Source: an uncultured candidate division Zixibacteria bacterium
GTDB lineage: Bacteria > Zixibacteria > MSB-5A5 > GN15 > FEB-12
NCBI GenBank assembly: GCA_963735035.1
Contig: CAVTJJ010000003.1
Location: 480,001 to 544,000 of the forward strand
Length of the DNA: 64,000 nt
Direction: 5' to 3'
The notes under the pieces: model-generated
The model's input: only the letters and a program-made list of their open reading frames with translations
What the model was told of the DNA's origin: nothing
Databases searched by the model: none
In this document: piece by piece, positions 3 to 17,566 of the stretch
How positions within the stretch are numbered: position 1 is the first letter of the stretch
Layout of the letters: each line of letters begins with the position of its first letter
Translations under genes and position numbers: made by a program

Positions 3-458
3 GGCGAAGCCGATGACTTCACCATCCGAAGTCAGGCCGAGATCGCCGAGAGTGTAACTTCGGTTACCAAGACCATGACCGTCCTGCTCGGCTCCATAGC
101 TGCAGTAAGTCTGCTGGTCGGCGGGATAGGCATCATGAATATCATGCTGGTGTCGGTGACAGAGCGGACGCGAGAGATTGGCATACGGCTGTCGGTCGGG
201 GCCCGCGAGAGTGACATCATGGTTCAGTTCCTGACCGAGGCCGTAGTGTTGAGTCTGGCCGGAGGCATAGTTGGCGTGGCCCTGTCCTTTGCCACCGTAG
301 CCGGACTGAATCGCTGGTCGGATATGCAGCCGGTCATCACGCCCTACATAGTCACACTGTCGTTCATCTTTTCCGCCGCAATTGGTGTATTTTTTGGAAT
401 TTACCCGGCCCGCAAAGCGGCAGCGATGGATCCGATTGAGGCGCTTCGACACGAGTAG
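3..458 (+). CDS. MacB/FtsX-family ABC transporter permease, C-terminal part (5' truncated by window edge)
   Basis: Frame open from base 3 (GEADDFTIRSQAEI...); motifs SLLVGGIGIMNIMLVSVTERTREIGIR and GIYPARKAAAMDPIEALRHE. Confidence 0.92.
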   Translation, partial: GEADDFTIRSQAEIAESVTSVTKTMTVLLGSIAAVSLLVGGIGIMNIMLVSVTERTREIGIRLSVGARESDIMVQFLTEAVVLSLAGGIVGVALSFATVAGLNRWSDMQPVITPYIVTLSFIFSAAIGVFFGIYPARKAAAMDPIEALRHE

Positions 459-1510: not shown

Positions 1511-2641
1511 TTATTTTTTCGTTTTCATGCCGGGCGGCTGAGTCTCCGCCGTGCGTCCGTCATCATGGCAATCACTGCAGACCGCGTCGGCCTCGTAACT
1601 GCGGTTCGGGTGACAAGCCGTACAATCCATCTCGGAATGCACATCATCGAGCTTCAGACCCGTCACGGCGTGAGTAAACGTTTCCTGAGTCCAACCACCG
1701 TGACAGTTGATGCACATCCGATTTATCTTGGAGATCCTCTTACCCGTCGGATGACACGACCAACAATCAAGTTCGGAATGATACGGGTTAAGTGGCCAAC
1801 CGGTCGTATTATGGGAGAAGCCTGGCCGTTCCTTGGTGTCATGGCATTTGGCGCAAGCGTCCTGCTTATGGCAATCGTTGCAGATCGCGTGTACCTGCTC
1901 CTGTGACTTGCGCGGACCGGGGGTGCGCTGCAGATCATGGCAATAGCCGCAATTCTCCTGGCGGTGGCAGTTGACACATCGGAATCCAAATAGATCGATA
2001 TGCTCTTTGTGCTGGAATGTAACAATCGGGCCGATCTTGTACGGCGTGTCGTACACCTTCTTGGCCGGAACCGCGATAACCGGATGAGAGCGGCCTATGA
2101 TATCCGTCGAATCGTTCATGCTCTCCCCCACATTGGCGCCCGGCACGGGAAGATGACAGACGATGCACTTGGTATCGTGACTCCATTCACGATGGCACGA
2201 AAGACACTGACGGTGATAGGCGCCTTTCAATCCCGGCTGCGACAGGTTCTTCGGATTGACCTGGCTTTCATGGCAGTCTTTACATGGCGGAATCTGGCCG
2301 GGTGGACTGAAATGGTGGCAGGCCGAGCAACTGTCTTTCATTTCGGCCATGGAGGCGTGCAGCTTGTGATTGAAATGCACCGGCTGATACTCATCCGCCA
2401 GCTCTTTCAAGAGCAGTGTGTCGGGTGCTTCAGACAATGGATGCTGGACGGTCGTGTGCGTCATCGTATGTGTCGGGCATTGGTTCAGACATGGATTCTT
2501 GGCCGTCGGCACCGGACAGGTATGACACGACCCACAATCTATCTTATCCATTGGATTGGCGACATCCTGGGCAGCCCCCCACGACTGCATCCAGGACGTC
2601 AATCCGAACGCAAAAACTAGTATTGCTAACAAATGTTTCAT
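1511..2641 (-). CDS. Periplasmic multiheme cytochrome c (13 CxxCH motifs; cytochrome c3-like domains)
   Basis: Signal peptide; CGSCH, CSACH, CKDCH, CLSCH, CIVCH, CVNCH, CGYCH, CNDCH, CAKCH, CWSCH, CINCH, CTACH, CSDCH; c3-type VHFNHKLH and AYHRQC motifs. Confidence 0.93.
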   Translation of the reverse strand: MKHLLAILVFAFGLTSWMQSWGAAQDVANPMDKIDCGSCHTCPVPTAKNPCLNQCPTHTMTHTTVQHPLSEAPDTLLLKELADEYQPVHFNHKLHASMAEMKDSCSACHHFSPPGQIPPCKDCHESQVNPKNLSQPGLKGAYHRQCLSCHREWSHDTKCIVCHLPVPGANVGESMNDSTDIIGRSHPVIAVPAKKVYDTPYKIGPIVTFQHKEHIDLFGFRCVNCHRQENCGYCHDLQRTPGPRKSQEQVHAICNDCHKQDACAKCHDTKERPGFSHNTTGWPLNPYHSELDCWSCHPTGKRISKINRMCINCHGGWTQETFTHAVTGLKLDDVHSEMDCTACHPNRSYEADAVCSDCHDDGRTAETQPPGMKTKK

Positions 2642-2642
2642 T

Positions 2643-3917
2643 TCATCTCGCTTTGTAAACCGTGGTTTGAGTCGGCGCCATTTGAACTCTTGCGTCGACT
2701 TTGCCGTTTTGTCCGCCGCCGGAAATCACCGGGAAGTTGAGTACCACAAACCGATAGACTAACACGAGCGCCGATATCAGGCCGATCGTCACCATGATCT
2801 CATAGATCGATGGAAAGTAGGTCTTCTCGGGATACAGTGGTTCATAGGCAACCAGGAACACGTTGATACGATTGAGAGCCACCCCAAAGATCACCAGAGT
2901 GGCCGAAATGAACAAACCTTTCACGGAATGCCTGACCTTCGGTATCGATAGCAGAATCACCGGCAGGATCACACCGAGCGTCAGTTCGATGATGAACATG
3001 AACGATTCAAGATCACCGGCGAAAACATACGGCCAGACCTCACGCAGCGTAAGATCCCCGATCTTGACCGCTAGATACGCGCCGAGAAGAACCGGCGTAT
3101 AGCGGGCAATCGACGACAACACCGGCAGCTCCGGTTTCAACTTGAAAGAGCGCGAGGCGAGGATCGATTCGAATATGACCATCGGGAAACCGACTGCGAT
3201 CGCCGACATCAGAAACAGCAAAGGCGAGATCGGCGTGTACCAGAGAGCATGCATCTTGGTCGGCGCTATTAGCATGAGCGTACCGAGAGACGATTGGTGC
3301 AAACAGGAGAGCACTACGCCGGCAATGATGAATACGGAAATAAACCGGCCGAGATATTGTTCACAGACATCGAGCCAGGCTTCGACTATTCTATTGAGAA
3401 TGCCGAGCGGACCCGGCAGATTGACCTTGCCCTTGAACCGCTCGACGACGATGGGCAGGAACTCGATGTACAGCACGGTCAGGTAGATCATGACACACAT
3501 GCCGACTTCGAACAGAACCGAGTTCCCCTGCCACATACTGGGCAGCATCGGGTGCCAGACGTTGTAATAACGTCCGAGATCAGCCAACAGGCCGATCACC
3601 ACGAAAGTATATCCGAGCATCGCGGTGAGAAGCGCCGGGCGCACGATCACGTGGTATTTTTCCTTGTGGAAGATATCGGCCAAAGCAGCGGTGGTGAATC
3701 CTCCAGCCGCCAGGGCTACACCGGAGGCCACATCAATAGCAATCCAAATGCCCCAGGGGTATTGATTGTCGAGATTGGTGGCGGCGCCGATGCCGGCGAT
3801 CAACCGATAGGCATAAGCCGCCATTCCAGCCAGCATGATGGCAAACATGACTTTGGTGCCACCCGAGAAGAACTTCACCGGCACCGGGGCGGCCGCCTCG
3901 TGGCTATGCTTACTCAT
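2643..3917 (-). CDS. NrfD/PsrC/HybB/HmcC-family quinone-interacting membrane subunit
   Basis: YPWGIWIAIDVASGVALAAGGF, DLGRYYN, SVLFEV, LHQSSLG motifs; many TM helices; start taken at MSKHSHE, overlapping the upstream stop. Confidence 0.92.
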   Translation of the reverse strand: MSKHSHEAAAPVPVKFFSGGTKVMFAIMLAGMAAYAYRLIAGIGAATNLDNQYPWGIWIAIDVASGVALAAGGFTTAALADIFHKEKYHVIVRPALLTAMLGYTFVVIGLLADLGRYYNVWHPMLPSMWQGNSVLFEVGMCVMIYLTVLYIEFLPIVVERFKGKVNLPGPLGILNRIVEAWLDVCEQYLGRFISVFIIAGVVLSCLHQSSLGTLMLIAPTKMHALWYTPISPLLFLMSAIAVGFPMVIFESILASRSFKLKPELPVLSSIARYTPVLLGAYLAVKIGDLTLREVWPYVFAGDLESFMFIIELTLGVILPVILLSIPKVRHSVKGLFISATLVIFGVALNRINVFLVAYEPLYPEKTYFPSIYEIMVTIGLISALVLVYRFVVLNFPVISGGGQNGKVDARVQMAPTQTTVYKAR

Positions 3918-4818
3918 GGGTCGTCTCCTTGCTGCTCGGATCACGCAGGGAATGCATTACCAGACCGAGCAGGCCATAGAGCGCGAGCGGTGGAACGAAT
4001 GACTTAAAGACACCGTGCTGAATTACTTCGGTCACGTCGGGGATCGGCTCCTCGCCCAGTTTTGGCAGGCCGGCAGCCGTCATGTCGGTGGCGGCAAGAT
4101 ACATCCAACTCGTGCCACCAATTTCCTTCTCGCCGTAGATGTGCTCAACGTAGCGTCCGGGGTTGGCCCGGAACCGGCTTTGCGCGATGTCCAGCAACTC
4201 CTCGCGAGTACCGAATATCAGCGCTTCGCTCGGACAGATTTCCACACAGGCCGGTTTCTTCCCTTTTTCCAACCTTGGAGCACAGAAGGTGCACTTGCGT
4301 ACCTGCGGATCAAGAGCATTTTGGTATTCATACGCCGGAATCTGAAACGGACAGGCCACCATGCAGTACCTGCAACCGATACATTTCCAGGCATCGTACC
4401 CAACCGGGCCGCTATCTGTCTTTTTAAGCGCCCCGACAATACAAGCAGAAGCACAGGCCGGATCGTTGCAGTGCATACACTGCACTTTGAGCATGTACAA
4501 CTTGTCGGTACCATCGCTCGCCGGGAAAGTGTTGACGACAGTAAAGGCGGCATCGGTTGGACGGCGCCGTTTCTGAAACACGGACTTGTCTTCGAACGCT
4601 TTCAGTTCCTGGGTGGGCAGCGCGTTGGCATCGTTACAAGCCCATTCACACTTGCGGCAACCGATGCAGGCGACCGTATCGACTATGACACCGAAGGTTT
4701 TGTCGCCGTTAAACGATCCTTTGATTTCGCTGCTGTCACTCGCGAGCGCAGAACCGGCAAGTGCTGTGATTGACCCCAGGGCACTTAGTTTGAAAAAATC
4801 TCTTCGCCCAATATCCAT
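3910..4818 (-). CDS. Tat-exported 4Fe-4S dicluster protein (HybA/HmcB/NrfC family) with C-terminal membrane anchor
   Basis: RRDFFK Tat motif; CIGCRKCEWAC, CMHCNDPACASAC, CIGCRYCMVACP, CTFC...PACVEICP. Confidence 0.93.
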   Translation of the reverse strand: MDIGRRDFFKLSALGSITALAGSALASDSSEIKGSFNGDKTFGVIVDTVACIGCRKCEWACNDANALPTQELKAFEDKSVFQKRRRPTDAAFTVVNTFPASDGTDKLYMLKVQCMHCNDPACASACIVGALKKTDSGPVGYDAWKCIGCRYCMVACPFQIPAYEYQNALDPQVRKCTFCAPRLEKGKKPACVEICPSEALIFGTREELLDIAQSRFRANPGRYVEHIYGEKEIGGTSWMYLAATDMTAAGLPKLGEEPIPDVTEVIQHGVFKSFVPPLALYGLLGLVMHSLRDPSSKETTHE

Positions 4819-5223: not shown

Positions 5224-6777
5224 CTAGTCCACCAGCGCTCGCTCAAAACTGACCGCGTTCAGAGTCGAATCGACATAGAAGTAGCTCTCGGAATGAAACG
5301 GAACGTACACCAATCCGATCTCAGTTGGGACTATTTCCAGATCTTTCTCTGGCAGTGCCAGGCCATGATCTATCAGCTCTCGACAGATGATCACTTCGGC
5401 CATTGCCCGAGCTTCGTCAGGTCCGATCTGCACAGGCAGATAACGATCGTCCATAACTTCGACCACTTCGGTCGCAAATCGCGATTGGGCCGTAGTCATG
5501 CGGCGAGATAGCTTATGAAGCGATTCATAGTTCCCGGACTTGATGGCCGGAATCATCAAGGCTCTGCATTGATCCGCTCCACCCAACATACTGCCGTACC
5601 GCGAAACGATGTCTTCGGGCAAGCCAAGCCGCCAGAACGGAATCATTTTACCAGATTCTTTGGAGTCAGCACCAACGGCCTCGATTTGAGTAAGTCTTGT
5701 CGCGCTGGAATCCATCATCTGAATAGCGTGACAGTTGGAGCAAAGATATACATGAGAAAGAGTCCCCGGCAGGTCGGCGCCGCAATAATCGCAGCGATGG
5801 AAATCGACTTCGATTTGGCCGGGTGTGAACTGGGATTCGGCGGAGGACACATCCGAAAGCTCCGCGTCCGACTGAGCCAGGTCGGCCACCACTCCCTGAG
5901 CAAGGGTTTCCTCGTACATCAAATCTCTTGGTTCTTCGCCGCGCGAAGAAGACACAGTGATTCGCCCTGAATAAAGCCCAATGCGGTCGTCGTCCAGACC
6001 GGAATCTCGCGGCCGCCGTTGTTCCGGCAGAGTTGCCTTGATCATCCGTCCGACCAGCCCGTCGAGCACGAACCGGCGATAAGTTTCCGCATACTCATCG
6101 ATAATCAGATAGGGGAAATAGATCAAAGACCAAACCGGGTTGAAGAGGCGAGTCAGGTTGCGACCGAAGTCGGCCGGGCTGATTTGAGACAGAGTTTCGA
6201 CCGCCTGCTTCACACTCAGGTTAACCGCGGCCAGCGGGCAAACAACCGGCAAGACATCGAATTCGCCGCCGAGGACCTCATCGGCTAATGGCGTCAGCCC
6301 CACCGTTTCGGAGCGAAGGCCGAGCGATTCGGGAAGCCCGTCGACTTTCACTCCCGCAGCGACTGTGAACAAGTACGGCGTGACCGTCACAGTTGAGCGG
6401 TTGGTCTCGATCACGGTCTCCTGTTCCGATTCGACTTCTCCGGCAATCTTCCTCACTTCGGTGCGATTCCGGAGTTTCAGCACTCGGGCGTCGATCTTCC
6501 AATACGGATAGTAGAGCTTCTTGACCTGAAGTCCGTTGCCGGTTAGAGGGAGATCGTGCTGTTTGAGATATCGGTCGATATGAACGCGAATTTCGTGCGA
6601 CTGCACCCGGGCCACAACCATGAAGGCGGGCGGCACTCCCGGCATGATGAGGCGCAGGGTAGAACCGCAATGCTCACAGCGCGTGACGAAGAAGTCGGCG
6701 TCGAGATGCAGTTCACCACCACAACCCGGACAGCCTACCCCGATGAAGAAACCGCCCGAGGGCTTACTGTTGTTCAC
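5224..6777 (-). CDS. Zinc-ribbon protein with two repeated units (YdjG-like)
   Basis: CPGC..CEHC and CDYC..CSNC ribbons, each followed by YYPYW / MIPFW and LIYFPY / LVYVPF motifs; likely GTG start overlapping the SPFH gene end. Confidence 0.7.
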
Positions 6778-7891
6778 TCCGGTCAACCGCCTTGCCGCAT
6801 TCGCCGCAGTATTTCGAACCCGCAATCAGTTCCGCCGAGCAATGGGGACACTTCGGGCGGGCGTTCAGTTGAGCGCCACAGTTCAGACAGAATTTGGCCT
6901 CGGCCGGAAGTTGCTGGCTGCAGGCCGGGCAAACGTTCTGCGCTACCATCTGATGGCCGCAGCGATAGCAGTAGCGCGATTGCTCCGGCGTTTCGGTGTG
7001 GCATTTGGGACAGGTAACGGCCGAAACCGACTCGCGCTTCAACTCGGTCTGCTCGGGAGCAAAGACCTTGTTCAACATGGCGGGCATCATGACGCCGACT
7101 CCGGCCGCCATACCCAGTCCGGCCCCGGCCGTTCCGGCGCCGCCTGATGTCCCCAATCCTTTGGCCATCTCGAACTTGAGAAACTTGTCCAGATCGCCAA
7201 CCGCTTCCATTCCGGAGCGCTGATCGATCATCCGCGCCACCTCGTCCGGCGGCGTGATCGACGAGATAAAGAAATCGACCAGTTCGAGGCCGTATTTCTC
7301 GAACTCTACTTTGACGATCTCCTTGAACTTCGCGGCCAGTTCCGTATAGATCGCCGGCAATTCGAGAATCGAGCCGAGGTCTTCGCCGAGGAGGTCGTTC
7401 ATGCGCGCGATGATGACATCGCGGAGATAATCCTGTATGTCGCCGGTGGTATACCGCGCCTGACGACCCACCACCGTGTTTAGAAACAGAGCCGGTTGTT
7501 TGATGCGCATGGTGAAAGCGCCGTGGCCCCGAAGTCGGATAAGGCCGAGCTTGCTGTCCTGGAACGTGACCGGATAGCGCGTACCCCACTTGAGATCGGT
7601 GAAAGTCTTCAGATTGACGAAATAGACTTCGGCCCGAAACGGTGAGTCGAAGCCGAAAGGAAACGCCAGCAGCCGGGTAAGAATCGGGATGTTTTTCGTA
7701 GACAGAGTATGTCGCCCGACCGCAAACGAGTCGGCGGCGTGGCCGTCTTTGAAGAAGATCGCCATCTGACTGTCGCGTACGATCAATTGGGCGCCCAGCT
7801 TGAAATCGGCCGATCCCTCCTGCGGAAGGCGATAGATCATTTCCTGACCGGTTGGGTCGATCCATTCTATAACTTCGATCAATAGAGACAT
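6764..7891 (-). CDS. SPFH (band 7)/YdjI-like protein with C-terminal double zinc ribbons
   Basis: [40 protein letters not shown]; three CPxC...YC/FCxxCG ribbons. Confidence 0.88.
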
Positions 7892-8091
7892 AGTAGCTCC
7901 TCAGTTTCCAGGGCAGATTTCCCCTGCTACTTCTTATGATCGACCGGTTGGTAGAAGTGCTTGAATCAAGAATTGGTATGGTCTGCCCAAACGGACTTGG
8001 GGAAGGAGCGGAAGGTCCGGCCAAGTCTTGATAGCTCGCCGTCGACTAGCGGACGGGCGAGTGTGACCTCACCGACAAGATGTGTTATATG

Positions 8092-8880
8092 TTAGATATG
8101 GGAGTTAAGCGCCCTTCGCGGTTCATCGTCATAATAAGCGTGTCTCCAAGCAAGGTGCTCGCATAAGCCATCAAGATCGGGTAAGAGCGTTGATCGGTTG
8201 ACTCCGAGTATGTGCAGTTGCTTTCTGATTCCTGGAAAAGCACTGGGAGGAACACGTACTTTAGTAAGCTTGAAGAAGTAAGCTTTGTTCTTTTCGAAGG
8301 GCACTACATGTCCTGTGCGGTCTATTTGGTGAACGGTAAAAGCACCTGCTTGAGCGGATATTCTGTTGCTTACTATTCTCGGCCGAAAGACCTTTGTAGT
8401 TGTGTTAGACAGAGGATTGAATCTCCTTGTATCCAATCTGAAATCATCCAACAGAGGAGCCAGTATCCAGACAATACCGTCCTCCGGAGCATCCTCTTTG
8501 TCTATATAAGGCGGCTTACTTACTGCAAACCACAACCCCGTCAGAGCGCTGAATGACCAATCGAGCAGCCTCGTTGGAAGACCGTGATGCTGAGCAAGTG
8601 ATAGCACATCCCATTTGTCTTCTGGGATTGACTTAGACAGAAGGCGGCTTGTTCTTGTGAACTCACGTATAATCAATTGTTCGATCTTCTTGATCTTGCC
8701 CTTAAGCTTATGTTCACGATCAAGTCTGGCCAGTCGCGGAAGAAGCGGCAAATCGCGTCTCTGTCCCCGAAAGAGTAAATCGGCATTGTTCCGAGCCTTT
8801 TCAGCTGCTTCTTTGATTTCGTCCACAAGCGAGACATACTCCTGGACATTGTTGATCACTTTAACGCGACGCTTTACCAA
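8092..8880 (-). CDS. FRG domain-containing protein
   Basis: LLFRGQ, LAQHHGLPTRLLDWS, NRISAQAGAF, LLPDLDG motifs; GGAGG upstream of TTG start; AT-richer than flanks. Confidence 0.9.
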   Translation of the reverse strand: MVKRRVKVINNVQEYVSLVDEIKEAAEKARNNADLLFRGQRRDLPLLPRLARLDREHKLKGKIKKIEQLIIREFTRTSRLLSKSIPEDKWDVLSLAQHHGLPTRLLDWSFSALTGLWFAVSKPPYIDKEDAPEDGIVWILAPLLDDFRLDTRRFNPLSNTTTKVFRPRIVSNRISAQAGAFTVHQIDRTGHVVPFEKNKAYFFKLTKVRVPPSAFPGIRKQLHILGVNRSTLLPDLDGLCEHLAWRHAYYDDEPRRALNSHI

Positions 8881-9125: not shown

Positions 9126-10352
9126 TCAGCGACCGAAAGATATCCAGTAAGTCACCGGCGTTTCCGGCTGTTCCTTATCATCGGTGGTGATTGTAATGGC
9201 ACCGGACACATTGGTCCGGGCTTTCATCACGGCCGGTATAGGAACCAATGTTACTTCGTATTGCTTGTCAGCAACGAGAGTATCTACATGAAACATCAAC
9301 CTCTGATCCACATCCTTGACACTGAGAATATGGACCTGCGCCCCGTCCACGGTGCTGATGACTTTGACCACTTGTTTCACCGACTCAGAGTTGGTCTTCG
9401 ACGTATCCACGAAGAACTGAACCGCTTCGGGGGTTATGTCGACATTGCCTACCACCGTTCCCGTAATCGGCAGAGTGGCATCCGGCGTAGCACCGTCACC
9501 GGCGCGGGCAGTGAGAGCCGCATTGATGCGACCGACGGGTATATCAGACGTTCCGTGCACCTCTATCGTCAGGCGACCCGGCGTCGAACCGCTTCCGGGA
9601 ACAGCCTGTACCACTTTGGCGCTGAACTGAGGGGACGAGGAAGTGAATGCTACGGTCTTCGCTATCGAAGGATCCTTCACTATCATCGATGTGCTTATTG
9701 ACACCTGCTTGCCCTTGCGGACTCTTCCCACATCAAGGCTGTATTGTTCGAAACCAAAAACGATCTCAACAAAAGCCGTGATATTCAGCGTAGCCCTTGG
9801 ATTCTTGGGATCGTTTGACTCGACCGTAATTGACTTCTTCTGCTGACCGGTCTTGTGCTTACTGTCGAAAGTAACTTCGATTTTGCCTTCCCCACCCGGG
9901 GGAATGTCCGTGTCGGTTAACACGGCCGCCGTGCAGCCTCACGTGCCCTGAGCTCGAATGAGCCGTAAGGGGGCATTACCGACATTTCGCACCGTGAATT
10001 TGTGTGAGACCATCGCCCCCTGGGCAATCGTGTCAAAATTATGCTCGGGCTCGGGGAAACTGATGCTCGGACTGCCGGAGACCGGCTGGCTCTTGGCCGT
10101 ATCCAGATTCTTGACCGGGGCTTCGGCTCGCGGCGGAACAGTCTCCGTCGCTTTTGACACACGAGAAGAGTCGCCCTTTATGACGGTCCAACCTGCCACT
10201 GCGACAGCTATAACCAGGAGAGTGCCGGCCGCCCAGATAACAGTGTTTCTGAGGTTCAGGCCTCGACTCGACTGCTCGGACCGCGACTGTCTGCGGCCGC
10301 CCGATGCGGTCTTGTCAGCGCCTCTGTTCTTTTGCCTCTTGTGCTTTGCCAT
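9126..10352 (-). CDS. Membrane-anchored DUF1573/Ig-like protein with in-frame TGA; probable selenoprotein (408 aa)
   Basis: ORFs 9939-10352 and 9126-9923 are in the same frame; read-through gives ...FTVRNVGNAPLRLIRAQGT-*-GCTAAVLTDTDIPPGGEGKIEVTFD, where * (9939-9941) aligns to the first Cys of the DUF1573 SCGCT motif. Confidence 0.82.
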
Positions 10353-10358
10353 GTCAAC

Positions 10359-11027
10359 CTATCCGGTTACGATTCTGCCGTCCTTGAGACGAAGTTGTCT
10401 GCTGCCGAATTTCGCCGCCTCGGGGCTGTGCGTGACCATTATAACAGTCCGGCCTTCGGTCTCGTTCAGTTCCTTCAGTATCCGAAGGACTTCCAGAGAC
10501 AGATTCGGATCGAGATTCCCGGTCGGTTCATCCGCCAGGATAACATCGGGACCGTTCGCGAGTGCCCGGGCAATTGCCACCCGCTGCTGCTGGCCGACCG
10601 ATAACTCGCGCGGCAGATGTTCCTTTCGATCCTTAAGCCCGACTCTGTCAAGCAACTCTTCGGCCAACGATTGGGCCGTCCCGTTGCGGTCACTGTTGAA
10701 TATCATCGGCAGCATGATATTCTCCATTGCGGTAAGATACGGTATCAGGTTGAAAGTTTGCAAGACGAACCCGACCTTGCGATTGCGATACTCGGCCATT
10801 TCCGGTTCGGACATAGAGTAAACAGGTTTGCCCGAAAACGATACGGTACCCGCCGTGGGCCTAATAAGCCCCCCGAGCGTCAGGAGCAGGGTCGTCTTGC
10901 CCGATCCGGATCCACCGGTGACGGCGACGAAGCTGCCTCGCTCCACATCCAGCGAGACGTTATCCAGCGCCCGAACGGTCCCATGTTGTGAAGTATAGAC
11001 CTTGCTGAGATTCTCAATGGTGAACAT
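10359..11027 (-). CDS. ABC transporter ATP-binding protein (LolD/MacB-like)
   Basis: GGSGSGKTT Walker A, LSVGQQQRVAIARAL, ILADEPTGNLD, VTH. Confidence 0.95.
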   Translation of the reverse strand: MFTIENLSKVYTSQHGTVRALDNVSLDVERGSFVAVTGGSGSGKTTLLLTLGGLIRPTAGTVSFSGKPVYSMSEPEMAEYRNRKVGFVLQTFNLIPYLTAMENIMLPMIFNSDRNGTAQSLAEELLDRVGLKDRKEHLPRELSVGQQQRVAIARALANGPDVILADEPTGNLDPNLSLEVLRILKELNETEGRTVIMVTHSPEAAKFGSRQLRLKDGRIVTG

Positions 11028-11030
11028 CGC

Positions 11031-12251
11031 CTATACCTCCTGCATGATGACGGCCGGGTCAAATCGCGCGGCGCGGTAGACCGGAAGAATGCTGCCCAGC
11101 AAAGCTATCAACACCGCCACCCCTACCGAGAAAAGCAGATAGACAGGAATCGGCGAAACGCTTAGCCCGGCCAATTGCGGCCCGAGAATCATCGCCGCTC
11201 CCGTTCCAACGATAAAGCCGCCCAGGCCGCCGACTACACCCAGAATGACAGCCTTTGATAGAAAGAGGCGGTAGATCGCGGATCGTTTGGTGCCAATAGT
11301 GATCAGAATACCAATCTCGCGACGGCGCTCTTCCACGTTCGCCCACATGTAGTTGCCTATTGTTATGGCGCCTACGATTATGATTATCACGAGAAAGACG
11401 AATGATATTTTCCGCATCAGTTGGTTGGTTTGAATCTGGGTGCTGACTATCTGATTGATGGTCGTAATGCGTGTGTCCGGAAGGATATTGCGAAGCTTAC
11501 CGAGCAGACCATCCGATATGGCCGAACAGCAGCCCATGATCTCTATCGCGCTGACCTGCTCGCCGGTCCCCAGAAGCTGCTGGACCGTATGCAGGTGGGC
11601 ATAAATGCGACTGTCGTCGATGGTGCCGGTTTCAGGGATGACTCGAGCGACCGTAAATGTTTTGCCCTCCAAGCTGAGACTTCCCCCCTCTTTCAGGCCG
11701 AGCCGCTGCGCTATGCTACTGCCAACGAGTACGTCCGTAGTCGCGAGCGAATCGACCGCCTTGCGCTGCAACTTCTCGTCCTGGTACCCAAAGGACTGAT
11801 TAGCCGTGTTGCCGGGGGCGCAGGCCGCAGCCAGGCCGGCACCAGCTAATCCGGCCGACTGCCATATAGGCTTTGCGGCCAGCTCATTGGCCGGAAGAAT
11901 ACCGGTAAGAATTACCGGTACGTCGCCGACCTTGATACGGCGCGTCAATTTGGGCGAAAGATTGTCCACGCCGGGAAGCATGGAGGTAGCCAGTCGCTCG
12001 ACGTAATTTTCGGGAAAGGTGGGAGCATCGATATCGGCTGAGTAGTAATCGTCGACCGAGGCGGCCTGCGGCAGGACGAGGATATTGGCCCCCAGATTAT
12101 CCAGACTTACAGCTACTGCCTTCTCCGAAACCGCTGATACCGACTGAATGCCTACAATTACGGCAATACCCAGCGTGATACCGAGAAGTGCGGAGATCAG
12201 CTGCGACTTACGCAGCCAGAGCTCCCGCCACATGATGGTCTGCAGTTTCAT
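11031..12251 (-). CDS. FtsX/MacB-type ABC permease with Cys motifs in the periplasmic domain
   Basis: N-terminal TM, LGANILVLP, NVEERRREIGILITIGT, RAARFDPA; AAACAPG and EIMGCC motifs; start at MKLQTI. Confidence 0.9.
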   Translation of the reverse strand: MKLQTIMWRELWLRKSQLISALLGITLGIAVIVGIQSVSAVSEKAVAVSLDNLGANILVLPQAASVDDYYSADIDAPTFPENYVERLATSMLPGVDNLSPKLTRRIKVGDVPVILTGILPANELAAKPIWQSAGLAGAGLAAACAPGNTANQSFGYQDEKLQRKAVDSLATTDVLVGSSIAQRLGLKEGGSLSLEGKTFTVARVIPETGTIDDSRIYAHLHTVQQLLGTGEQVSAIEIMGCCSAISDGLLGKLRNILPDTRITTINQIVSTQIQTNQLMRKISFVFLVIIIIVGAITIGNYMWANVEERRREIGILITIGTKRSAIYRLFLSKAVILGVVGGLGGFIVGTGAAMILGPQLAGLSVSPIPVYLLFSVGVAVLIALLGSILPVYRAARFDPAVIMQEV

Positions 12252-12261
12252 ATTAACGGTC

Positions 12262-13029
12262 CTACTTCTTCTTCGGGCCGCAAGCCGCACCCGGAGCGCA
12301 ACCGGCGGCGGGGCTGCATCCGCTGGTCGCCTTCTTGGTCGCCGCTGTCACCAGATCGGTGACTTGCATTGCTCCGGTGTACACTCCGGAGATTTGTCCC
12401 TGCGCATTGGCCACCATGGTGACTGGTTCGGCCGATTGCAAGTCGACTTTCATATCGGTCAGAAAACCGGCCTCGGCCGGATCATCCATATCGACTGTTA
12501 TCTGCACGCACTTGCCGGCCAACTGTTGGCAGGCGGTGGCGCAGGTGCTATTGACGGTCGCTGCCGTGGTCATGCCTTTCCGAGCGGCGGTGATAAACAC
12601 GGCATTCCCCTCAGAGATGGCTTTGAGGATCTCTGCCTTCTTCGGTGACGGCACCAGCTTGACCAGTTGATCGACTGTCGCCTGGGCGGCAATAACACCA
12701 CCGGTAATGACTCCGGCGCCGGAAGCAACCAGAATGAGCGGCACCGGAGCGGTTGCCACACCAAACTTGGTGACTGTCGCCGCGTTCGCCGCATCGCCGC
12801 GATCCATTTCTATGGCAACCGATCCGGGCGTTTGTTTGATTGCGTCAGATACCATCTGGCGAGCCTGATCCAGAGCCACGGCAGTCTGATCGTAAACGAG
12901 AATATAAGCGACTTTCCCCGCTTTGGCGGCGGATTCTAGTTGCTCGGTCACAGCGCCACAGACCGAACCGGCGATGAGAGCCAAAACGAATACCATAAGG
13001 CTGAACACGCGTACCATAGTCTTCTCCAT
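12262..13029 (-). CDS. Secreted protein, probably tandem thioredoxin-like folds, with Cys-rich C-terminal tail
   Basis: Signal peptide; two similar alpha/beta halves (IEMDRGDAANAA / ITVDMDDPAEAG); TCATACQQLAGKC and GCSPAAGCAPGAACGPKKK. Confidence 0.7.
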   Translation of the reverse strand: MEKTMVRVFSLMVFVLALIAGSVCGAVTEQLESAAKAGKVAYILVYDQTAVALDQARQMVSDAIKQTPGSVAIEMDRGDAANAATVTKFGVATAPVPLILVASGAGVITGGVIAAQATVDQLVKLVPSPKKAEILKAISEGNAVFITAARKGMTTAATVNSTCATACQQLAGKCVQITVDMDDPAEAGFLTDMKVDLQSAEPVTMVANAQGQISGVYTGAMQVTDLVTAATKKATSGCSPAAGCAPGAACGPKKK

Positions 13030-13079: not shown

Positions 13080-13406
13080 TCAGGCGCACTTTCTGGTCGT
13101 CAGATACTTCTTGAGTGCGGCCAACTCCTGCCGATACGGACTCTCGAGAGTCAGATGACGCTGCAGCGTTAGGCGTAATTCTTCGACGAGCGGCGTGTCG
13201 GCCAAACGATAATGAACCCATTTGCCGGAGCGACGGTCGGTAACCAATCCCGATGACTTCATGCGCGCCATATGCCTGGAGACAGTCGATTGCGGCACCT
13301 TGAGAACTTCCATTAAATCACAAACACACAACTCCTGGCCGAGGAGCAAAACAGCAATCCGAAGCCGGATCGGATCGGCCAGACCCTTGAACAGTTCGTG
13401 GGTCAT
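13080..13406 (-). CDS. arsR: ArsR/SmtB-family metalloregulator
   Basis: [19 protein letters not shown] metalloid-binding motif, [19 protein letters not shown] overlap with acr3. Confidence 0.93.
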
Positions 13407-14479
13407 GATTTCACCTCGCGAGGCATCGGGCTTATTGGCTCGAAATACTTCCGCCGGAAATAGAGGGAGACGCTAACCAAACCGATCATCACCGGAACTT
13501 CCACCAACGGCCCAATCACAGCGGCAAAGGCGACTCCGGAATGAATTCCGAACACCGCCACTGCCACCGCTATCGCCAGCTCAAAATTGTTCGACGCCGC
13601 CGTGAAGGAAAGAGTTGTCGCTCGTCCGTAGTCGGCGCCAATCTTCCAACTCATGAAGAAGCTGACCAGGAACATCACGACGAAATAGATAAGCAGCGGA
13701 ATGGCTATGCGGACGACATCCATGGGGATCTTGACAATGTGCTCGCCCTTGAGCGAGAACATAACTACGATCGTGAACAGCAGAGCTATCAGTGTAATCG
13801 GGGATATCTTGGGAATGAACTTCTGCTCATACCAGATTTTGCCCTTGGTATTTATGAGCGCAAAGCGGGTTATTATCCCGGCAATAAACGGAATTCCTAG
13901 ATAGACAAAAACGCTCTCGGCGATTTGCCCGATGGTCACCTGCACCAGCGCTCCGGACAACCCGAAAAGCGGTGGGAGCACAGTCACAAAGACCCAGGCA
14001 TAAACGGAATATAGCAGAATCTGGAAGACCGAATTGAACGCCACCAGCCCGGCCGCATATTCCGGATCGCCCGAGGCCAGGTCGTTCCAGACGATCACCA
14101 TGGCGATACAGCGCGCCAGTCCGATCATAATCAGGCCGACCATATATTCCGGGTAGGCGGGTAGAAAGACGATAGCGAGGAAAAACATCAGGATTGGCCC
14201 GATAACCCAGTTTTGAACCAGACTCAGACCGAGAACCCGATAGTCACGGAACACCCGCCCCATTTCCTCATAGCGAACTTTCGCGAGCGGCGGGTACATC
14301 ATAAGAATCAACCCGACCGCGATCGGAATATTGGTGGTCCCGACCTGGAACCGGTTGAGAACCGACTGGACATCGGGCATGAAATACCCGAGCCCTACAC
14401 CTAGAGCCATTCCGGCGAAAATCCAAAGGGTCAGGAAGCGGTCCAGAAAGGAGAGTCTTTTGGCGGCAGGTTGGTTCAT
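13403..14479 (-). CDS. acr3: ACR3-family arsenite efflux transporter
   Basis: [61 protein letters not shown]. Confidence 0.96.
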
Positions 14480-14534
14480 TGGCAGTTTCAGTCTACGGTT
14501 TCGCCGGGTCAATTTACTCAGGCGGAGCCCGTCG

Positions 14535-14577
14535 TATCCGCTTATGCGAATATATTGTTATATCGGCGCCCCGTCAA
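14535..14577 (-). promoter_or_regulatory. ars operon promoter with overlapping ArsR-type inverted-repeat operator
   Basis: TTGACG-17 bp-TATATT on minus strand; TATTCGC-ataa-GCGGATA imperfect inverted repeat overlapping the -10. Confidence 0.7.
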
Positions 14578-15028: not shown

Positions 15029-17566
15029 CTACTTCAGAATGACCAACTTCCCGATCTGCGTGCGCGTCGCCGATTCAACGACCCAGTAGTAAAGCCCCGA
15101 CTCCACCGCCAGACCGGAACGACTCACCAGATTCCACCAGTCGTGCATCGACTCCGGGCCGCCTTCGGGGAAATTGTGATCGATTGTGCCAATATGATCG
15201 CCATCGAGTGAATACACTTTGATCTTGCAGACGCGTGGGAGATTGCCAAAGTGGATTAATCGCGCCCGGTCGGGAATGATGTTCCCCTTGCGGTTCTCGT
15301 AGCCGCCGTCTTCATAGTTGGCGTCAACCCGGTATGGGTTCGGATAGACATAGGCGTCAAGATTCTGTTCTTCGACGATTTCTGACGAGGTCTGGGCGTA
15401 GCATTCGGTAACATTATTGAGTGGATTGGTTTCGTCGGGGGGCATGTTGCCGCGTCCCCCGGCGTAACCAAAGTCAAAGACGGTTACCGCGACAAAATAT
15501 GGCACAGTCGGCAGAAGGTTATCGATGATGTATTCGTATTCGTAGAATTTGGGTAGCATGCGGCCACCGTGTTCAACCGTAATGTCATCTGCTGTCCAAA
15601 GGGTTGAGTCGGTGCCGGGATTGACCGCATCCGGGTAGGCTTTGTGGATGCCGTTGGGTGTAGTCAGACTGTACACGTTCTCATCGACCTCGGAGAAATA
15701 AAAGGCACTGTCACCATCGATCAACGGACGCTGGCGGGGGTAATCATCCGGGTTGAAATCAGGATTGTTATGGAGAATGCGGAGTGAATCGAGACTGAAG
15801 GGCGGATCGTCGTTGACCCAGCGACTCTCGCCCGATCCCAGTTCGTTGTATTTCCAGCGCAACCAGTCCTGTTTATCGTAACTGGTCAGCAGCGCCAAAC
15901 TGGTTTTCCGGTTATCCAGACCGCAATAGACCCGATACCCCTCGAAATCCATAAGATTGGAAAAGATGTCTTTCGTTGTTTCGGAGAGATACCCGTTCCA
16001 CCGAACAATAATCTTCCCGGCTTCGGTCTCGTACCGCGTGAATGGGATCGGCGGTGGGGTGTTGCCGCGAAAGTCGGGAACGCCGTCGCCCTTGTACCAG
16101 GTTGTTTCACCTTCGCAGACGCGATACTCGCCGAAGTAACCATCGCTGTCCGTGTCCACGCCGGGATTGTCGTAGACCCACTTGGCCCATTGAGCGTTGG
16201 TGGCAAGCTCGGAGAAGTTGAGCTGATCGTAATATGACTGCGGATTATCGGGATAGAAGACCGCGTTCGGATCGGTGTGGACGTTGTCGCCACCAACCAC
16301 GGCGATAGTAAAGCTAATCTTGTCTTTCGACGGCAGTTCAAATGGACCGAAGGAGAGCAAGGCTTTGCCGCCTAGTCCCGATGCAATCAGCTCTGCATTC
16401 CCCGGCGGCGCCAGCCATCCTTGGGACTGATGGTCAACAGCGGTGAACATCTGGTCATAGTCGACTTCCGGGTGAGACATTACATAATAGAAATTCACAT
16501 CCTTGTACGGCTGACCAAGGAAGGGGCCAATCGGTCGAAACGGATCGTCCACCGTTTCTTTCCGTCTCGGCCCGAAGCTATCGCGCAGATTGTTCGTACC
16601 AGTCCACCAGTTGAAATTCGGGCGGGACACGTCAGCGGACGCACCCAGAAGCATCACACCCACCGCCGCCCTCGGAGAGAGTTCAGTGAATTCACCCGCC
16701 ACGGGGTCGCCATTATTGTCGATTACATAACATAAGTTGAGCGTGTCGCTGTAAGGACAAACTCCCGAATAGCGGATGTTCGGTATGTAACCGGCCAAGT
16801 TATCGTCATCATTAACGGCATCTGGCGTCAAGATGTTGCACGCTACGGTACCAGACTCCAGACCGATGAACACACTTCGCAGGTCCTTGTCCCCGATATT
16901 GGCTATATTGAATTCAATGATTACGAAGTCGTCTACCAAGCCACCGCTCCAGGCCATAGACCTTTGACTGATCTTGAGATCCAGTGATATCTGAGATCTC
17001 ACATCCCAGCCGACCATTTGATACGGCGGCGTGAAATTGTCATAGAACTCGCAAATCAGATCCAACTGTGAGCGAGCATTGGGAGAGAAGGAGACTGAGC
17101 GGGGATCCCCACTTAGAATTGCAAACGCGCCAAAGGGCGCCACGTCCGGAGCCATCTCCCAGCTATTCGATACCAAAGTGTCGTTTGCGACTATGGCCCC
17201 GACGTGCAACCCGAATCCGAAATAGCTATTGTACGATCCACGCGGATAGACACAACCATATACGGAGTCTCCGGTCACGGGGTCGACAATGGCTATTGCT
17301 GAACTCGGGCCCCAAATCGTTTCGCCGATTTTCCCCGCATTACTGACGCTCAACTGAAGATTGCCCTGGCTGTGAGCCGTCCAGCGAAAATCCGGCCCCA
17401 TTGACGCGGATGCTGATCCGATAGCAAGATGTCCGATGAGAACGCTCGCCATCAAAATAAGCTGTGTGGTCAGGGTAACTCCGTGCCACTCCCCTTGGGG
17501 TTGGGTTAGATTCGAAGACGATGCAGACATTTCCGCGCTGTTGTCCATTCCTGAGTTCGTTCCCAA
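15029..17566 (-). CDS. Large secreted protein with C-terminal T9SS/FlgD-like sorting domain (start uncertain)
   Basis: Hydrophobic signal region; C-terminal YVYPNPY...IKVYSLDG...WNLVSRSG..VESGLYYWVVES...GKLVILK; DTDSDG Ca-binding-like loop. Confidence 0.8.
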   Translation of the reverse strand: MGTNSGMDNSAEMSASSSNLTQPQGEWHGVTLTTQLILMASVLIGHLAIGSASASMGPDFRWTAHSQGNLQLSVSNAGKIGETIWGPSSAIAIVDPVTGDSVYGCVYPRGSYNSYFGFGLHVGAIVANDTLVSNSWEMAPDVAPFGAFAILSGDPRSVSFSPNARSQLDLICEFYDNFTPPYQMVGWDVRSQISLDLKISQRSMAWSGGLVDDFVIIEFNIANIGDKDLRSVFIGLESGTVACNILTPDAVNDDDNLAGYIPNIRYSGVCPYSDTLNLCYVIDNNGDPVAGEFTELSPRAAVGVMLLGASADVSRPNFNWWTGTNNLRDSFGPRRKETVDDPFRPIGPFLGQPYKDVNFYYVMSHPEVDYDQMFTAVDHQSQGWLAPPGNAELIASGLGGKALLSFGPFELPSKDKISFTIAVVGGDNVHTDPNAVFYPDNPQSYYDQLNFSELATNAQWAKWVYDNPGVDTDSDGYFGEYRVCEGETTWYKGDGVPDFRGNTPPPIPFTRYETEAGKIIVRWNGYLSETTKDIFSNLMDFEGYRVYCGLDNRKTSLALLTSYDKQDWLRWKYNELGSGESRWVNDDPPFSLDSLRILHNNPDFNPDDYPRQRPLIDGDSAFYFSEVDENVYSLTTPNGIHKAYPDAVNPGTDSTLWTADDITVEHGGRMLPKFYEYEYIIDNLLPTVPYFVAVTVFDFGYAGGRGNMPPDETNPLNNVTECYAQTSSEIVEEQNLDAYVYPNPYRVDANYEDGGYENRKGNIIPDRARLIHFGNLPRVCKIKVYSLDGDHIGTIDHNFPEGGPESMHDWWNLVSRSGLAVESGLYYWVVESATRTQIGKLVILK

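Follow-up and report, generated by a model that had tools for sequence, protein, structure and literature searches.

A predicted OS_HP2/DUF1573 selenoprotein at the end of an acr3-arsR operon, with two tandem hairpins downstream of its UGA codon

In the current study, we analysed a stretch of 64 kb from an uncultured Zixibacteria bacterium (hereafter the window), in which the last gene of the operon acr3-arsR-X-ftsX-abc-sec, here named sec, is crossed by an in-frame UGA. This codon, at position 138, is almost certainly read as selenocysteine, so that a Sec-Gly-Cys motif lies within a DUF1573 domain, and judged from its sequence the protein is a member of the known OS_HP2/DUF1573 (U-x-C) selenoprotein family. 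The selenoprotein itself is thus of an already known kind; the context of an ars operon and the two-hairpin recoding signal are the points that go further.

A UGA codon inside a DUF1573 domain

Translated with TGA as U, the sec frame reads through to 408 aa (Table 1), and PF07610 matches this protein in a single stretch that includes the TGA (92.2 bits against a cut-off of 26.1; E 2.1e-26). Because one Pfam domain extends across the TGA, both halves belong to one domain and a chance arrangement is excluded. The first-pass annotation had described a TGA where the CGCT motif of DUF1573 has its first Cys, with both sides in one frame and forming a continuous domain in a protein of this length. 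The minus strand reads exactly as it had noted (CAG GGC ACG TGA GGC TGC ACG GCG GCC GTG), and the unbroken Pfam match agrees with its description. Under translation table 11 the frame falls into two ORFs, an N-terminal one of 137 aa (9939-10352) and another downstream of it (9126-9923). A scan of the window for other TGA-interrupted frames returned 126 candidates, mostly ordinary gene ends.

Table 1. Positions of the sec gene, its elements and the neighbouring operon genes in the window
Feature	Position	Strand	Remarks
Selenoprotein gene (sec)	9126..10352	minus	ATG 10352, terminal TGA 9128-9126; translation with TGA=U
Hairpin 2, UUCCCC-CGGGU-GGGGAA	9888..9904	minus	begins 34 nt past UGA; near-invariant nucleotides, 31 sequences
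Hairpin 1, CCGUGUU-AACC-GACACGG	9908..9925	minus	begins 13 nt past UGA; stem co-varies
In-frame TGA, codon 138	9939..9941	minus	first position of U-G-C-T motif
DUF1573 (PF07610) domain, residues 97-195	9768..10064	minus	Pfam; Sec codon inside domain
Predicted TM anchor, residues 35-57	10182..10250	minus	helix in AF2 model
abc, ABC transporter ATPase	10359..11027	minus	Pfam ABC_tran E 4e-34; stop 6 nt before sec start
ftsX, FtsX/MacB-type permease	11031..12290	minus	Pfam FtsX and MacB_PCD
Protein X	12262..13029	minus	signal peptide, two thioredoxin-fold domains, disordered Cys-rich C-terminal tail
arsR, ArsR-type repressor, 108 aa	13080..13406	minus	Pfam HTH_5 E 1.1e-15; contains ELCVCDL
acr3, ACR3 arsenite efflux transporter	13403..14512	minus	first operon gene; TIGR00832 459.3 bits, cut-off 282.8
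Promoter-like TTGACG-17-TATATT	14549..14577	minus	directly upstream of acr3; consensus match only

The genome encodes the complete machinery for selenocysteine, with tRNA-Sec (selC; RF01852, 67.6 bits), selA (TIGR00474, 511.5 bits), selB (TIGR00475, 327.8 bits) and selD (TIGR00476, 394.1 bits) all scoring over their cut-offs. The selD gene of this genome itself has one TGA.

The TGA could also be a true stop, if sec were a nonsense pseudogene or in fact two genes, or if the codon arose from a sequencing error. Gene callers would terminate the frame at codon 138, and the gene's own terminator is likewise TGA. TGA is the commonest stop in this genome and terminates 613 of 1484 long ORFs, and is thus a normal stop there. 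We regard a true stop at codon 138 as extremely improbable, and it is already contradicted by the comparative data. TGA occupies the same alignment column in all nine orthologs aligned (35-57% identical), TGA-bearing relatives reach down to 28% identity, and the protein is conserved on both sides of the codon. A survey of the phylum found an ortholog in 37 of 285 genomes, and each of the 41 matches extending over residue 138 contains a TGA. The codon is also TGA in 30 of 31 fetched loci, a count biased towards Sec forms because the set was obtained largely via DIPPGGEG, a peptide encoded by hairpin 2 itself. Cys stands at the residue-138 position in locus L080, and the DUF1573 paralogs of the genome itself have CGCT (three), UGCT (one) or HCDCT (one) at the site. 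The single Pfam domain over the codon, the complete machinery and the frozen synonymous sites of the downstream hairpin described below speak against a stop as well. Decoding of the UGA as Sec, which the first-pass annotation had proposed, is therefore strongly favoured by these comparisons.

In the sec protein a K/R-rich N-terminal tail is followed by one TM helix, then by a disordered linker and finally by three beta-sandwich domains (AF2 mean pLDDT 78.4; alignment of nine orthologs, in which H117 is invariant). By the positive-inside rule the basic tail should be cytoplasmic, which would leave the domains outside the membrane, and the protein is predicted to be a membrane-anchored envelope protein with extracytoplasmic domains. 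The AF2 helix and this rule together place the U-x-C motif on the outer side of the N-terminal anchor, as had been suggested. Searched against PDB sequences, a profile of the orthologs gave only a weak match to the uncharacterised 2qsv_A (E 0.014), and Foldseek with the full model returned tandem Ig-like proteins of a generic kind (titin and ciliary central-apparatus chains) at low TM-scores, which does not inform on function.

The OS_HP2 family was predicted in 2007 from Olavius symbiont metagenomes, with two sequences and no Cys homologs (PMC1976440, Table 2), and was found again in the GOS data as pfam07610 with a UxC motif (table of PMC2398784). It is listed by motif (pfam07610, UxC/UGC) in reviews of 2022 and 2026 (PMC9312934, PMC13188914), and its entries in these four papers mention neither a function nor a link to ars genes. 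A literature search for DUF1573 and arsenic found no paper connecting the two in its title or abstract, or in the part of the PMC13188914 text that was covered. The first-pass annotation had called the gene a hidden selenoprotein, and since the family is already catalogued, it is hidden from gene callers only. Residues 100-196 match the NCBIfam model NF041425, OS_HP2 (seleno)protein, with E 4.2e-27 and 94.4 bits, narrowly missing the cut-off of 100; we read the protein as belonging to a long, divergent branch within the wider Pfam family, one that the NCBI rule would not name automatically. The sec protein shares with OS_HP2 a PF07610 domain over the gathering score and the replacement of the first C-G-C cysteine by Sec, whereas it differs in its TM anchor, two extra beta-sandwich domains and its ars-operon link. 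It thus appears to represent a long three-domain branch of OS_HP2/DUF1573 without a Cys-form ortholog in its phylum.

Two tandem hairpins after the UGA

Both hairpins that had been noted past the TGA were located (Table 1). Hairpin 1 has 7 bp and a 4-nt loop (-8.2 kcal/mol, z -3.2), and its loop lies 18 nt from the UGA. Its sequence is variable, and the loop opens with UU, CU or similar, without a conserved G. Its stem co-varies (columns 33/42: CG 15, GC 5, UA 3, UG 2, other 6), and none of 500 shuffles reached the observed covariation score, so the check for downstream covariation proposed in the first-pass annotation turned out positive. Hairpin 2 has 5-6 bp and a 5-nt loop (-7.9 kcal/mol, z about -0.4), and 100% of its cells are paired in the 31-sequence alignment. 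The loop, C-G-G-G-Y, is separated from the UGA by 40 nt, carries G at its second position and contains the GG of a Gly codon. Codons 150, 152, 154 and 155 have a synonymous entropy of 0 bits and codon 151 one of 0.46, compared with 0.35-2.22 for the remaining 24 degenerate codons that are conserved. Folding energy was dropped as evidence for a SECIS, with z -0.38 for hairpin 2 and a non-significant z of -0.77 for the whole 57-nt stretch. Since these energies are unexceptional, the evidence for the hairpins is comparative.

The bSECIS model requires an apical loop of 3-9 nt that has G in its first two positions and is spaced 16-37 nt from the UGA, an upper stem of 4-16 bp and an MFE of at most -7.5 kcal/mol (PMC13188914, Fig. 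2); the same paper states that some bSECIS elements fall outside it. Both sec hairpins resemble the model in being coding-region stem-loops 3' of the UGA within the limits for loop, stem and MFE. Both, however, depart from its four constraints, as hairpin 1 has no G at the start of its loop and hairpin 2 is too distant, so the earlier remark that neither is a clean canonical element, the first loop lacking G, was accurate. In sec the canonical spacing and the conserved loop G are found on different members of a tandem pair. An Rfam search of 9700-10100 gave no match at E <=1. The comparative data suggest that UGA recoding is directed by the two tandem downstream hairpins, of which hairpin 2 appears to be under the stronger RNA-level constraint. 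The second hairpin had been given secondary standing in the first-pass annotation; its existence is borne out, but the ranking has to be reversed, as it shows the strongest RNA-level constraint and carries the loop G.

Short DUF1573 Sec paralogs of the same order (PGUGCT...AVGDST; in this genome at C6:406473-406847) have the U-G-C-T motif of sec, and their UGA is likewise followed by two hairpins in this layout. In 24 of 24 matches hairpin 2 has the GG of a Gly codon at its centre, at a distance equal to that in sec, but a different stem. They differ from sec in being smaller proteins and in the stem (GCUGUC/GACAGC), the 3-nt loop and the encoded peptide of hairpin 2 (AVGDS, where sec has PPGGEG), and GG often stands early in the loop of their hairpin 1, which is nearer to the canonical model than that of sec.

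The operon and its conservation

The operon extends from 14512 to 9126, and its six genes lie on one strand, overlapping or separated by short gaps. A repressor of the ArsR type and a gene for arsenite efflux stand together in this gene string, which makes it an ars operon. The genome (3.6 Mb) has no acr3 match besides that of the operon, and the chance of sec lying near this gene is approximately 0.2% (about 8 kb of 3.6 Mb). Promoter-like sites were found three times against 4.2 expected by chance; their count is thus not significant, and only the position of the one before acr3 is suggestive. The operon repressor contains ELCVCDL, which we take to be the motif by which ArsR binds As(III)/Sb(III). 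Neither copper nor mercury genes were found in the operon with Pfam and NCBIfam, and among the papers listed by a literature search none describes this gene arrangement in its title or abstract.

The ATPase is LolD/MacB/FtsE-like by NCBIfam, with every score under its cut-off. The permease scores far below the NCBIfam equivalog cut-offs for MacB (60.4/966 bits), LolCE (56.6/362) and FtsX (27.5/255), and is thus not an ortholog of any of these. The pair resembles MacB/LolCDE/FtsEX-type (type VII) ABC systems in its permease domains, its ATPase and the presence of candidate periplasmic or membrane-anchored partners. In the ortholog alignment of the permease G253-C254-C255 is invariant and C157 near-invariant, and we place these residues in the periplasmic domain. 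Protein X (AF2 mean pLDDT 80.4) has double-thioredoxin-fold proteins as its best Foldseek matches and matched no Pfam or NCBIfam family; the ESM Atlas gave unnamed clusters only, plus a thioredoxin-like lead at 0.81. It carries CAxAC and no canonical CxxC, and its tail (consensus SGCCPxGSGASCGP) has the conserved residues C238...C250. The order with X and sec on either side of the pump genes is fixed in 11 of the 31 loci.

Loci L056 and L071 show a second architecture, in which a signal-peptide ArsF-like protein with CATC and a DsbD_2/ArsG membrane protein lie directly upstream. BLASTP gave no similarity between X and the ArsF-like protein (E 0.3).

Possible roles of the Sec-Gly-Cys pair

Ars-type genes occur in the fetched flanks of 18 of the 31 loci, the window locus included, and an SBF/Acr3-type gene in 15; NCBIfam families among the neighbouring genes include ArsM, ArsC-type, ArsF and ArsG. 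We propose, with about even confidence, that U138/C140 would serve, outside the cytoplasm, as a site where arsenite or a related trivalent (organo)arsenical is ligated, working with X and the permease. The As(III) thiol sites of ArsD are vicinal Cys pairs, and that of ArsR is the C-V-C in ELCVCDL. The selenol/thiol pair of sec would be a selenium version of the ArsR C-x-C site, with Sec in place of Cys conferring higher affinity and reactivity; together, sec, the Cys-tailed X and the Cys-Cys permease would capture As(III) in the envelope and then pass it on or hold it. The likeness to ArsR and ArsD is functional only: it consists of a soft-ligand pair of C-x-C type encoded in an ars operon, with partners containing CC or CC...C, whereas sec has a beta-sandwich fold, an extracytoplasmic place and Sec for one Cys, and is a member of neither family. 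As(III) usually takes three ligands; U-G-C offers two only, which speaks against an As(III) site.

The locus survey also bears on whether arsenic is the ligand at all. No ars-type gene was found in 12 of the 31 loci (the flank being incomplete in two of the 12), a count that speaks against an As(III) site, and one further locus is ambiguous; some loci adjoin DtxR, Fur/catalase, cytochrome c or type II secretion genes. With the invariant H117 as a conceivable metal ligand, sec might instead be a real selenoprotein that binds another soft metal (Cu, Hg, Sb, Cd) or serves as an envelope scaffold travelling with resistance islands. We consider this distinctly unlikely given the ars linkage in the majority of loci, the operon shared with the only acr3 match of the genome, the presumed As(III)/Sb(III) motif of its regulator and the result of the search for copper and mercury genes.

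Another possibility is that U138/C140 forms a redox centre (selenylsulfide/selenol-thiol) of an extracytoplasmic oxidoreductase acting on arsenicals or partner thiols and reduced by thioredoxin-fold partners. The reducing partner would be X in one architecture and the ArsF-like CxxC protein with DsbD_2/ArsG in the other. Selenocysteine mostly replaces redox Cys, which favours such a centre, as do the two thioredoxin-fold domains of X, the DsbD_2 and CATC proteins upstream in L056 and L071, and the thioredoxin-type ArsC genes nearby. Besides, the selenoprotein motifs listed in PMC9312934 and PMC13188914 are mostly redox motifs. X, however, has CAxAC and a disordered Cys tail where a canonical CxxC would be expected, and the operon in the window has a MacB-type ABC system instead of a DsbD/CcdA electron conduit. 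A beta-sandwich with a C-x-C motif is, to our knowledge, no known oxidoreductase fold, and the Foldseek matches are structural tandem Ig-like proteins only. On balance we judge a redox centre unlikely.

The arsenic-ligand reading can be extended, more tentatively, to an undescribed envelope arsenite module, composed of X with its CC...C tail, the MacB-type ABC system with periplasmic Cys-Cys and the membrane-anchored Sec-Gly-Cys protein. Sec would ligate As(III) in such a module, and its UGA would be recoded by a non-canonical two-hairpin SECIS with the SelB-binding loop 40 nt from the UGA. We hold this combined proposal to be rather doubtful as a whole; if true, it would be the first role of Sec as an arsenic ligand in resistance.

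These results show that standard annotation conceals a conserved protein of 408 aa in 37 of the 285 genomes of the phylum. If hairpin 2, at its distance from the UGA, is the SelB site, finders restricted to 16-37 nt would misjudge OS_HP2/DUF1573. Selenoproteins of this family have been without an assigned role since 2007, and the position of sec in an ars operon hints at one: the recurrent ars context and the thiol-rich partners provide a testable As(III)-binding hypothesis for the OS_HP2/DUF1573 family.

A selenocysteine codon inside a DUF1573 domain

The table 11 ORF finder splits the minus-strand DUF1573 gene into two pieces (9939-10352, 137 aa, and 9126-9923), and translation places an internal TGA at 9941-9939 (codon 138) and the terminal TGA at 9128-9126. 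The Pfam DUF1573 model (PF07610) crosses codon 138 as one stretch (residues 97-195, E 2.1e-26), in agreement with the first-pass annotation, which had joined both flanks into one frame, one domain and a read-through product of 408 aa.

The TGA is conserved among homologs. Across 40 relatives, all long matches (11 rows at E <=1e-37, own gene included) hold exactly one TGA, and in nine of nine aligned proteins (35-57% identity to the window protein) it occupies the same column, within an invariant stretch U-G-C-T-A-A-V-L-T...D-I-P-P-G-G-E-G. TGA also occurs at the site in 30/31 loci fetched from species-representative genomes, the exception being a distant Aquimarina homolog with TGT; the loci were retrieved through two peptide queries, I[KR]A[KQ]G[ST]CGC and [TA]DIPPGGEG, and since the recoding hairpin itself encodes the latter, the set leans to Sec forms. 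This bias does not affect a protein-based search run over 285 genomes from the phylum, which found an ortholog in 37 (42 match rows), with TGA present in 41/41 rows covering residue 138, the column itself being checked only for fetched rows; the 42nd covers residues 147-408 only. Exactly one TGA was found in 39 of the 41 and two in one row, while another, with TAG and TAA besides TGA, is probably a broken gene.

The 3.6-Mb genome encodes tRNA-Sec (ARAGORN call; RF01852, 67.6 bits, above cut-off), adjoining selA and selB, and selD. Its five further DUF1573 matches read CGCT (three), HCDCT (one) and UGCT (one), the CGCT and UGCT paralogs being a classical Sec/Cys pairing. Long ORFs end in TGA more often than in any other stop codon (613/1484), and therefore recoding is site-specific and not due to an altered genetic code. 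A nonsense mutation or sequencing error is ruled out for practical purposes, because the TGA is conserved, Sec genes are present and Cys-form paralogs exist. From this genomic evidence we regard the gene as a genuine selenocysteine gene, and the earlier reading of UGA as Sec stands.

SelD itself is a selenoprotein here, since selD holds an in-frame TGA (...CAGU-ASKLG...) with a hairpin GGCCGGG-GUU-CCUGGCC ~16 nt downstream. The genome also has a tRNA-Pyl, 1.4 kb from a PylS C-terminal domain, and the organism probably uses pyrrolysine besides selenocysteine.

Features of the selenoprotein gene, its product, its neighbourhood and related genes (G000, own genome; C2, C3, C4 and C6, its contigs; other nucleotide coordinates refer to the window)
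Feature	Position	Strand	Details
Selenoprotein gene	10352-9126	-	408-codon frame, single internal TGA
Hairpin 1	9925-9908	-	stem columns 29-33/42-46, begins 13 nt past UGA
Hairpin 2	9904-9888	-	UUCCCC/GGGGAA stem, CGGGY loop
Disordered Lys/Arg-rich tail	residues 1-36		AlphaFold2
Single helix	residues 35-57		AlphaFold2
Disordered linker	residues 58-91		AlphaFold2
Three beta-sandwich domains	residues ~97-196, 199-301, 304-406		AlphaFold2, mostly pLDDT >85
ABC ATPase	10359-11027	-	
FtsX/MacB_PCD permease	11031-12290	-	
Protein X	12262-13029	-	
ArsR	13080-13406	-	ELCVCDL motif
ACR3 arsenite efflux	13403-14512	-	TIGR00832, 459 bits vs 282.8
Oxidoreductase-like gene row	1511-4818	-	
FRG-domain protein	8092-8880	-	PF08867, E 2.5e-22
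Terminator-like hairpin	14891-14868		strong
845-aa ORF	15029-17566	-	
selD	G000:C3:544642-545568	-	642-1568 nt past window's end; TIGR00476, 394 bits
Second DUF1573 selenoprotein gene, short form	G000:C6:406473-406847	-	PGUGCT motif, own two-hairpin signal
Cys-form DUF1573 paralogs	C3:237631, C6:338420, C4:207270		CGCT
tRNA-Pyl	G000:C2:21792-21864	+	anticodon CUA, ARAGORN call
PylS C-terminal domain	C2:23256-23981	-	TIGR02367, 314 bits vs cut-off 178

The two-hairpin recoding signal

Both hairpins described in the first-pass annotation are present downstream of the UGA, and the 84 nt around it give a gapless alignment of 31 distinct sequences. Hairpin 1 varies in sequence and its stem co-varies (columns 33/42: CG 15, GC 5, UA 3, UG 2, other 6), with a covariation score reached by 0/500 shuffles and 96.5% pairing versus 46-68% in slid controls. 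Hairpin 2 has 100% of cells paired and a nearly invariant sequence, its stem being frozen. Synonymous entropy, computed over the 29 codons whose amino acid is both conserved and degenerate, was 0 bits at I150 (ATT 31/31), P152 (CCG), G154 (GGG) and E155 (GAA), 0.46 bits at P151 (CCC 28, CCT 3, CCT keeping a G-U pair) and 0.35-2.22 bits at the remaining 24; the loop codon G153 and the post-stem codon G156 are free to vary. These frozen synonymous sites argue that the invariance of hairpin 2 goes beyond protein conservation alone.

Within the same order, short paralogs form a subfamily (PGUGCT...AVGDST) that shows the two-hairpin layout in 24/24 hits (one locus counted twice): hairpin 1 is variable, and hairpin 2 lies equally far from the UGA (stem GCUGUC/GACAGC, GGY loop). 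Between the short and long branches the entire hairpin 2 stem is replaced, and the unpaired GG that it encloses, part of a Gly codon, stays the same.

The bacterial SECIS model has a loop of 3-9 nt and a stem of 4-16 bp (Fig. 2 legend, PMC13188914), a G in the first two loop positions, a distance of 16-37 nt from the UGA and an MFE <= -7.5 kcal/mol (PMC13188914). Hairpin 1 fits in spacing (18 nt) but lacks a conserved loop G, whereas hairpin 2 has the loop G but lies off-range at 40 nt, so that neither is a clean canonical SECIS, as had been noted at first pass. The folding energies of the hairpins alone are unremarkable, and Rfam gave no match to the region. This two-hairpin signal, off the published model, is a modest new lead.

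Family membership and protein architecture

The NCBIfam model NF041425, 'OS_HP2 family (seleno)protein', aligns to residues 100-196 (E 4.2e-27) at 94.4 bits, slightly below its 100-bit cut-off. Table 2 of PMC1976440 gives OS_HP2 among the six selenoprotein families newly predicted from symbionts of Olavius algarvensis, and the GOS selenoproteome table has 'OS_HP2, pfam07610, UxC' (PMC2398784). The proposal of a hidden selenoprotein was thus right about Sec, and its novelty lies only at branch level, OS_HP2/DUF1573 being already catalogued: the gene represents a new branch, long in form and linked to ars genes, of a family of selenoproteins already on record in 2007.

An AlphaFold2 model built from the nine-sequence alignment (mean pLDDT 78.4) predicts a tail, helix and linker followed by three beta-sandwich domains. 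The helix corresponds to the N-terminal TM anchor proposed at first pass, and by the positive-inside rule the beta-sandwich domains, with the UxC motif, would lie outside the cytoplasmic membrane. H117 is invariant in the alignment, as are U138-G-C140. Foldseek of the model returned generic tandem Ig-like proteins only, and a PDB sequence search gave no useful match.

The ars operon and its thiol-rich partners

The Sec gene closes a string of six genes on one strand (acr3-arsR-X-ftsX-abc-sec), with short gaps or overlaps between them. The acr3 match is unique in the genome, and a promoter-like site lies upstream of it (consensus match only). Directly downstream of the Sec gene is an FRG-domain gene, a neighbour not kept in other ortholog loci; upstream of the operon, an 845-aa ORF without a Pfam match at E <=1e-5 is followed by a terminator-like hairpin. 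Elsewhere in the window, a row of genes looks like a membrane oxidoreductase module: they encode a multihaem cytochrome c (Cytochrom_CIII), a membrane subunit of NrfD type and a 4Fe-4S dicluster protein. No catalytic subunit was found for it, since the ORFs that follow (5224-6825 and 6783-8024) had no Pfam/NCBIfam match.

Ars-type genes (ArsR-type HTH_5, LMWPc/ArsC-type, SBF/Acr3-type, ArsP_1 or ArsM-type methyltransferase) occur within the retrieved flanks of 18/31 loci, window included, with an SBF/Acr3-type gene in 15; one locus is ambiguous (methyltransferase only). Among the neighbours, NCBIfam names an arsenite methyltransferase (315.8 bits vs 263), a thioredoxin-type arsenate reductase (under cut-off) and the ArsF and ArsG families. 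Eleven of the 31 loci share architecture A, ArsR-X-FtsX-ABC-Sec followed by ArsR/ArsC/ArsM/Acr3, and two (L056, L071) have architecture B, ArsP-(Sulf_transp)-ArsF-like-ArsG/DsbD_2-Sec-ArsR/ArsC/Acr3; in L063, ArsP and a DsbD_TM protein lie downstream. In a Gemmatimonadota-labelled locus (L064:5407-7414, +), the ortholog precedes ArsR, a radical SAM protein and a protein with a B12-binding domain, a set that may serve organoarsenical biosynthesis or modification. Because the other 12 loci, two with shortened flanks, have no ars-type gene in their flanks, a non-arsenic metal or scaffold role keeps a small probability.

Protein X, third in the operon, carries a signal peptide and belongs to no Pfam or NCBIfam family; its conserved tail has the consensus SGCCPxGSGASCGP with invariant C238 and C250. 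In its model (mean pLDDT 80.4) two domains adopt the thioredoxin fold and the tail is disordered, and the top Foldseek hits (Pyrococcus protein disulfide oxidoreductase, AhpF N-terminal domain, PDI bb') have probability 1.00, yet a TM of ~0.3 over the whole chain. A redox role of the Sec protein, served by such thioredoxin-fold partners, is the main rival to arsenic binding, although we consider it rather unlikely. In the permease (MacB_PCD, residues 34-249; FtsX, 297-412), G253-C254-C255 is invariant and C157 nearly so, and we place both in the periplasmic domain; neither the permease nor X has a named family beyond generic domains. The ArsF-like neighbour of architecture B carries a signal peptide and a CATC motif. 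With these motifs and the Sec residue, every extracytoplasmic component is predicted to carry conserved thiols or a selenol.

We propose, with about an even chance of being right, that U138/C140 would be a site of soft ligands binding As(III) or organoarsenicals in the trivalent state, presumably analogous to the C-x-C of ArsR, and that the protein would act in the envelope together with X and the MacB-type machine. A link between DUF1573 and arsenic was found neither in the literature searched, by title or abstract, nor in the part of PMC13188914 used here, and nothing relevant on this combination of operon components was found by title or abstract. The arsenic context with thiol-rich partners is offered as a modest new lead for OS_HP2/DUF1573 selenoproteins.
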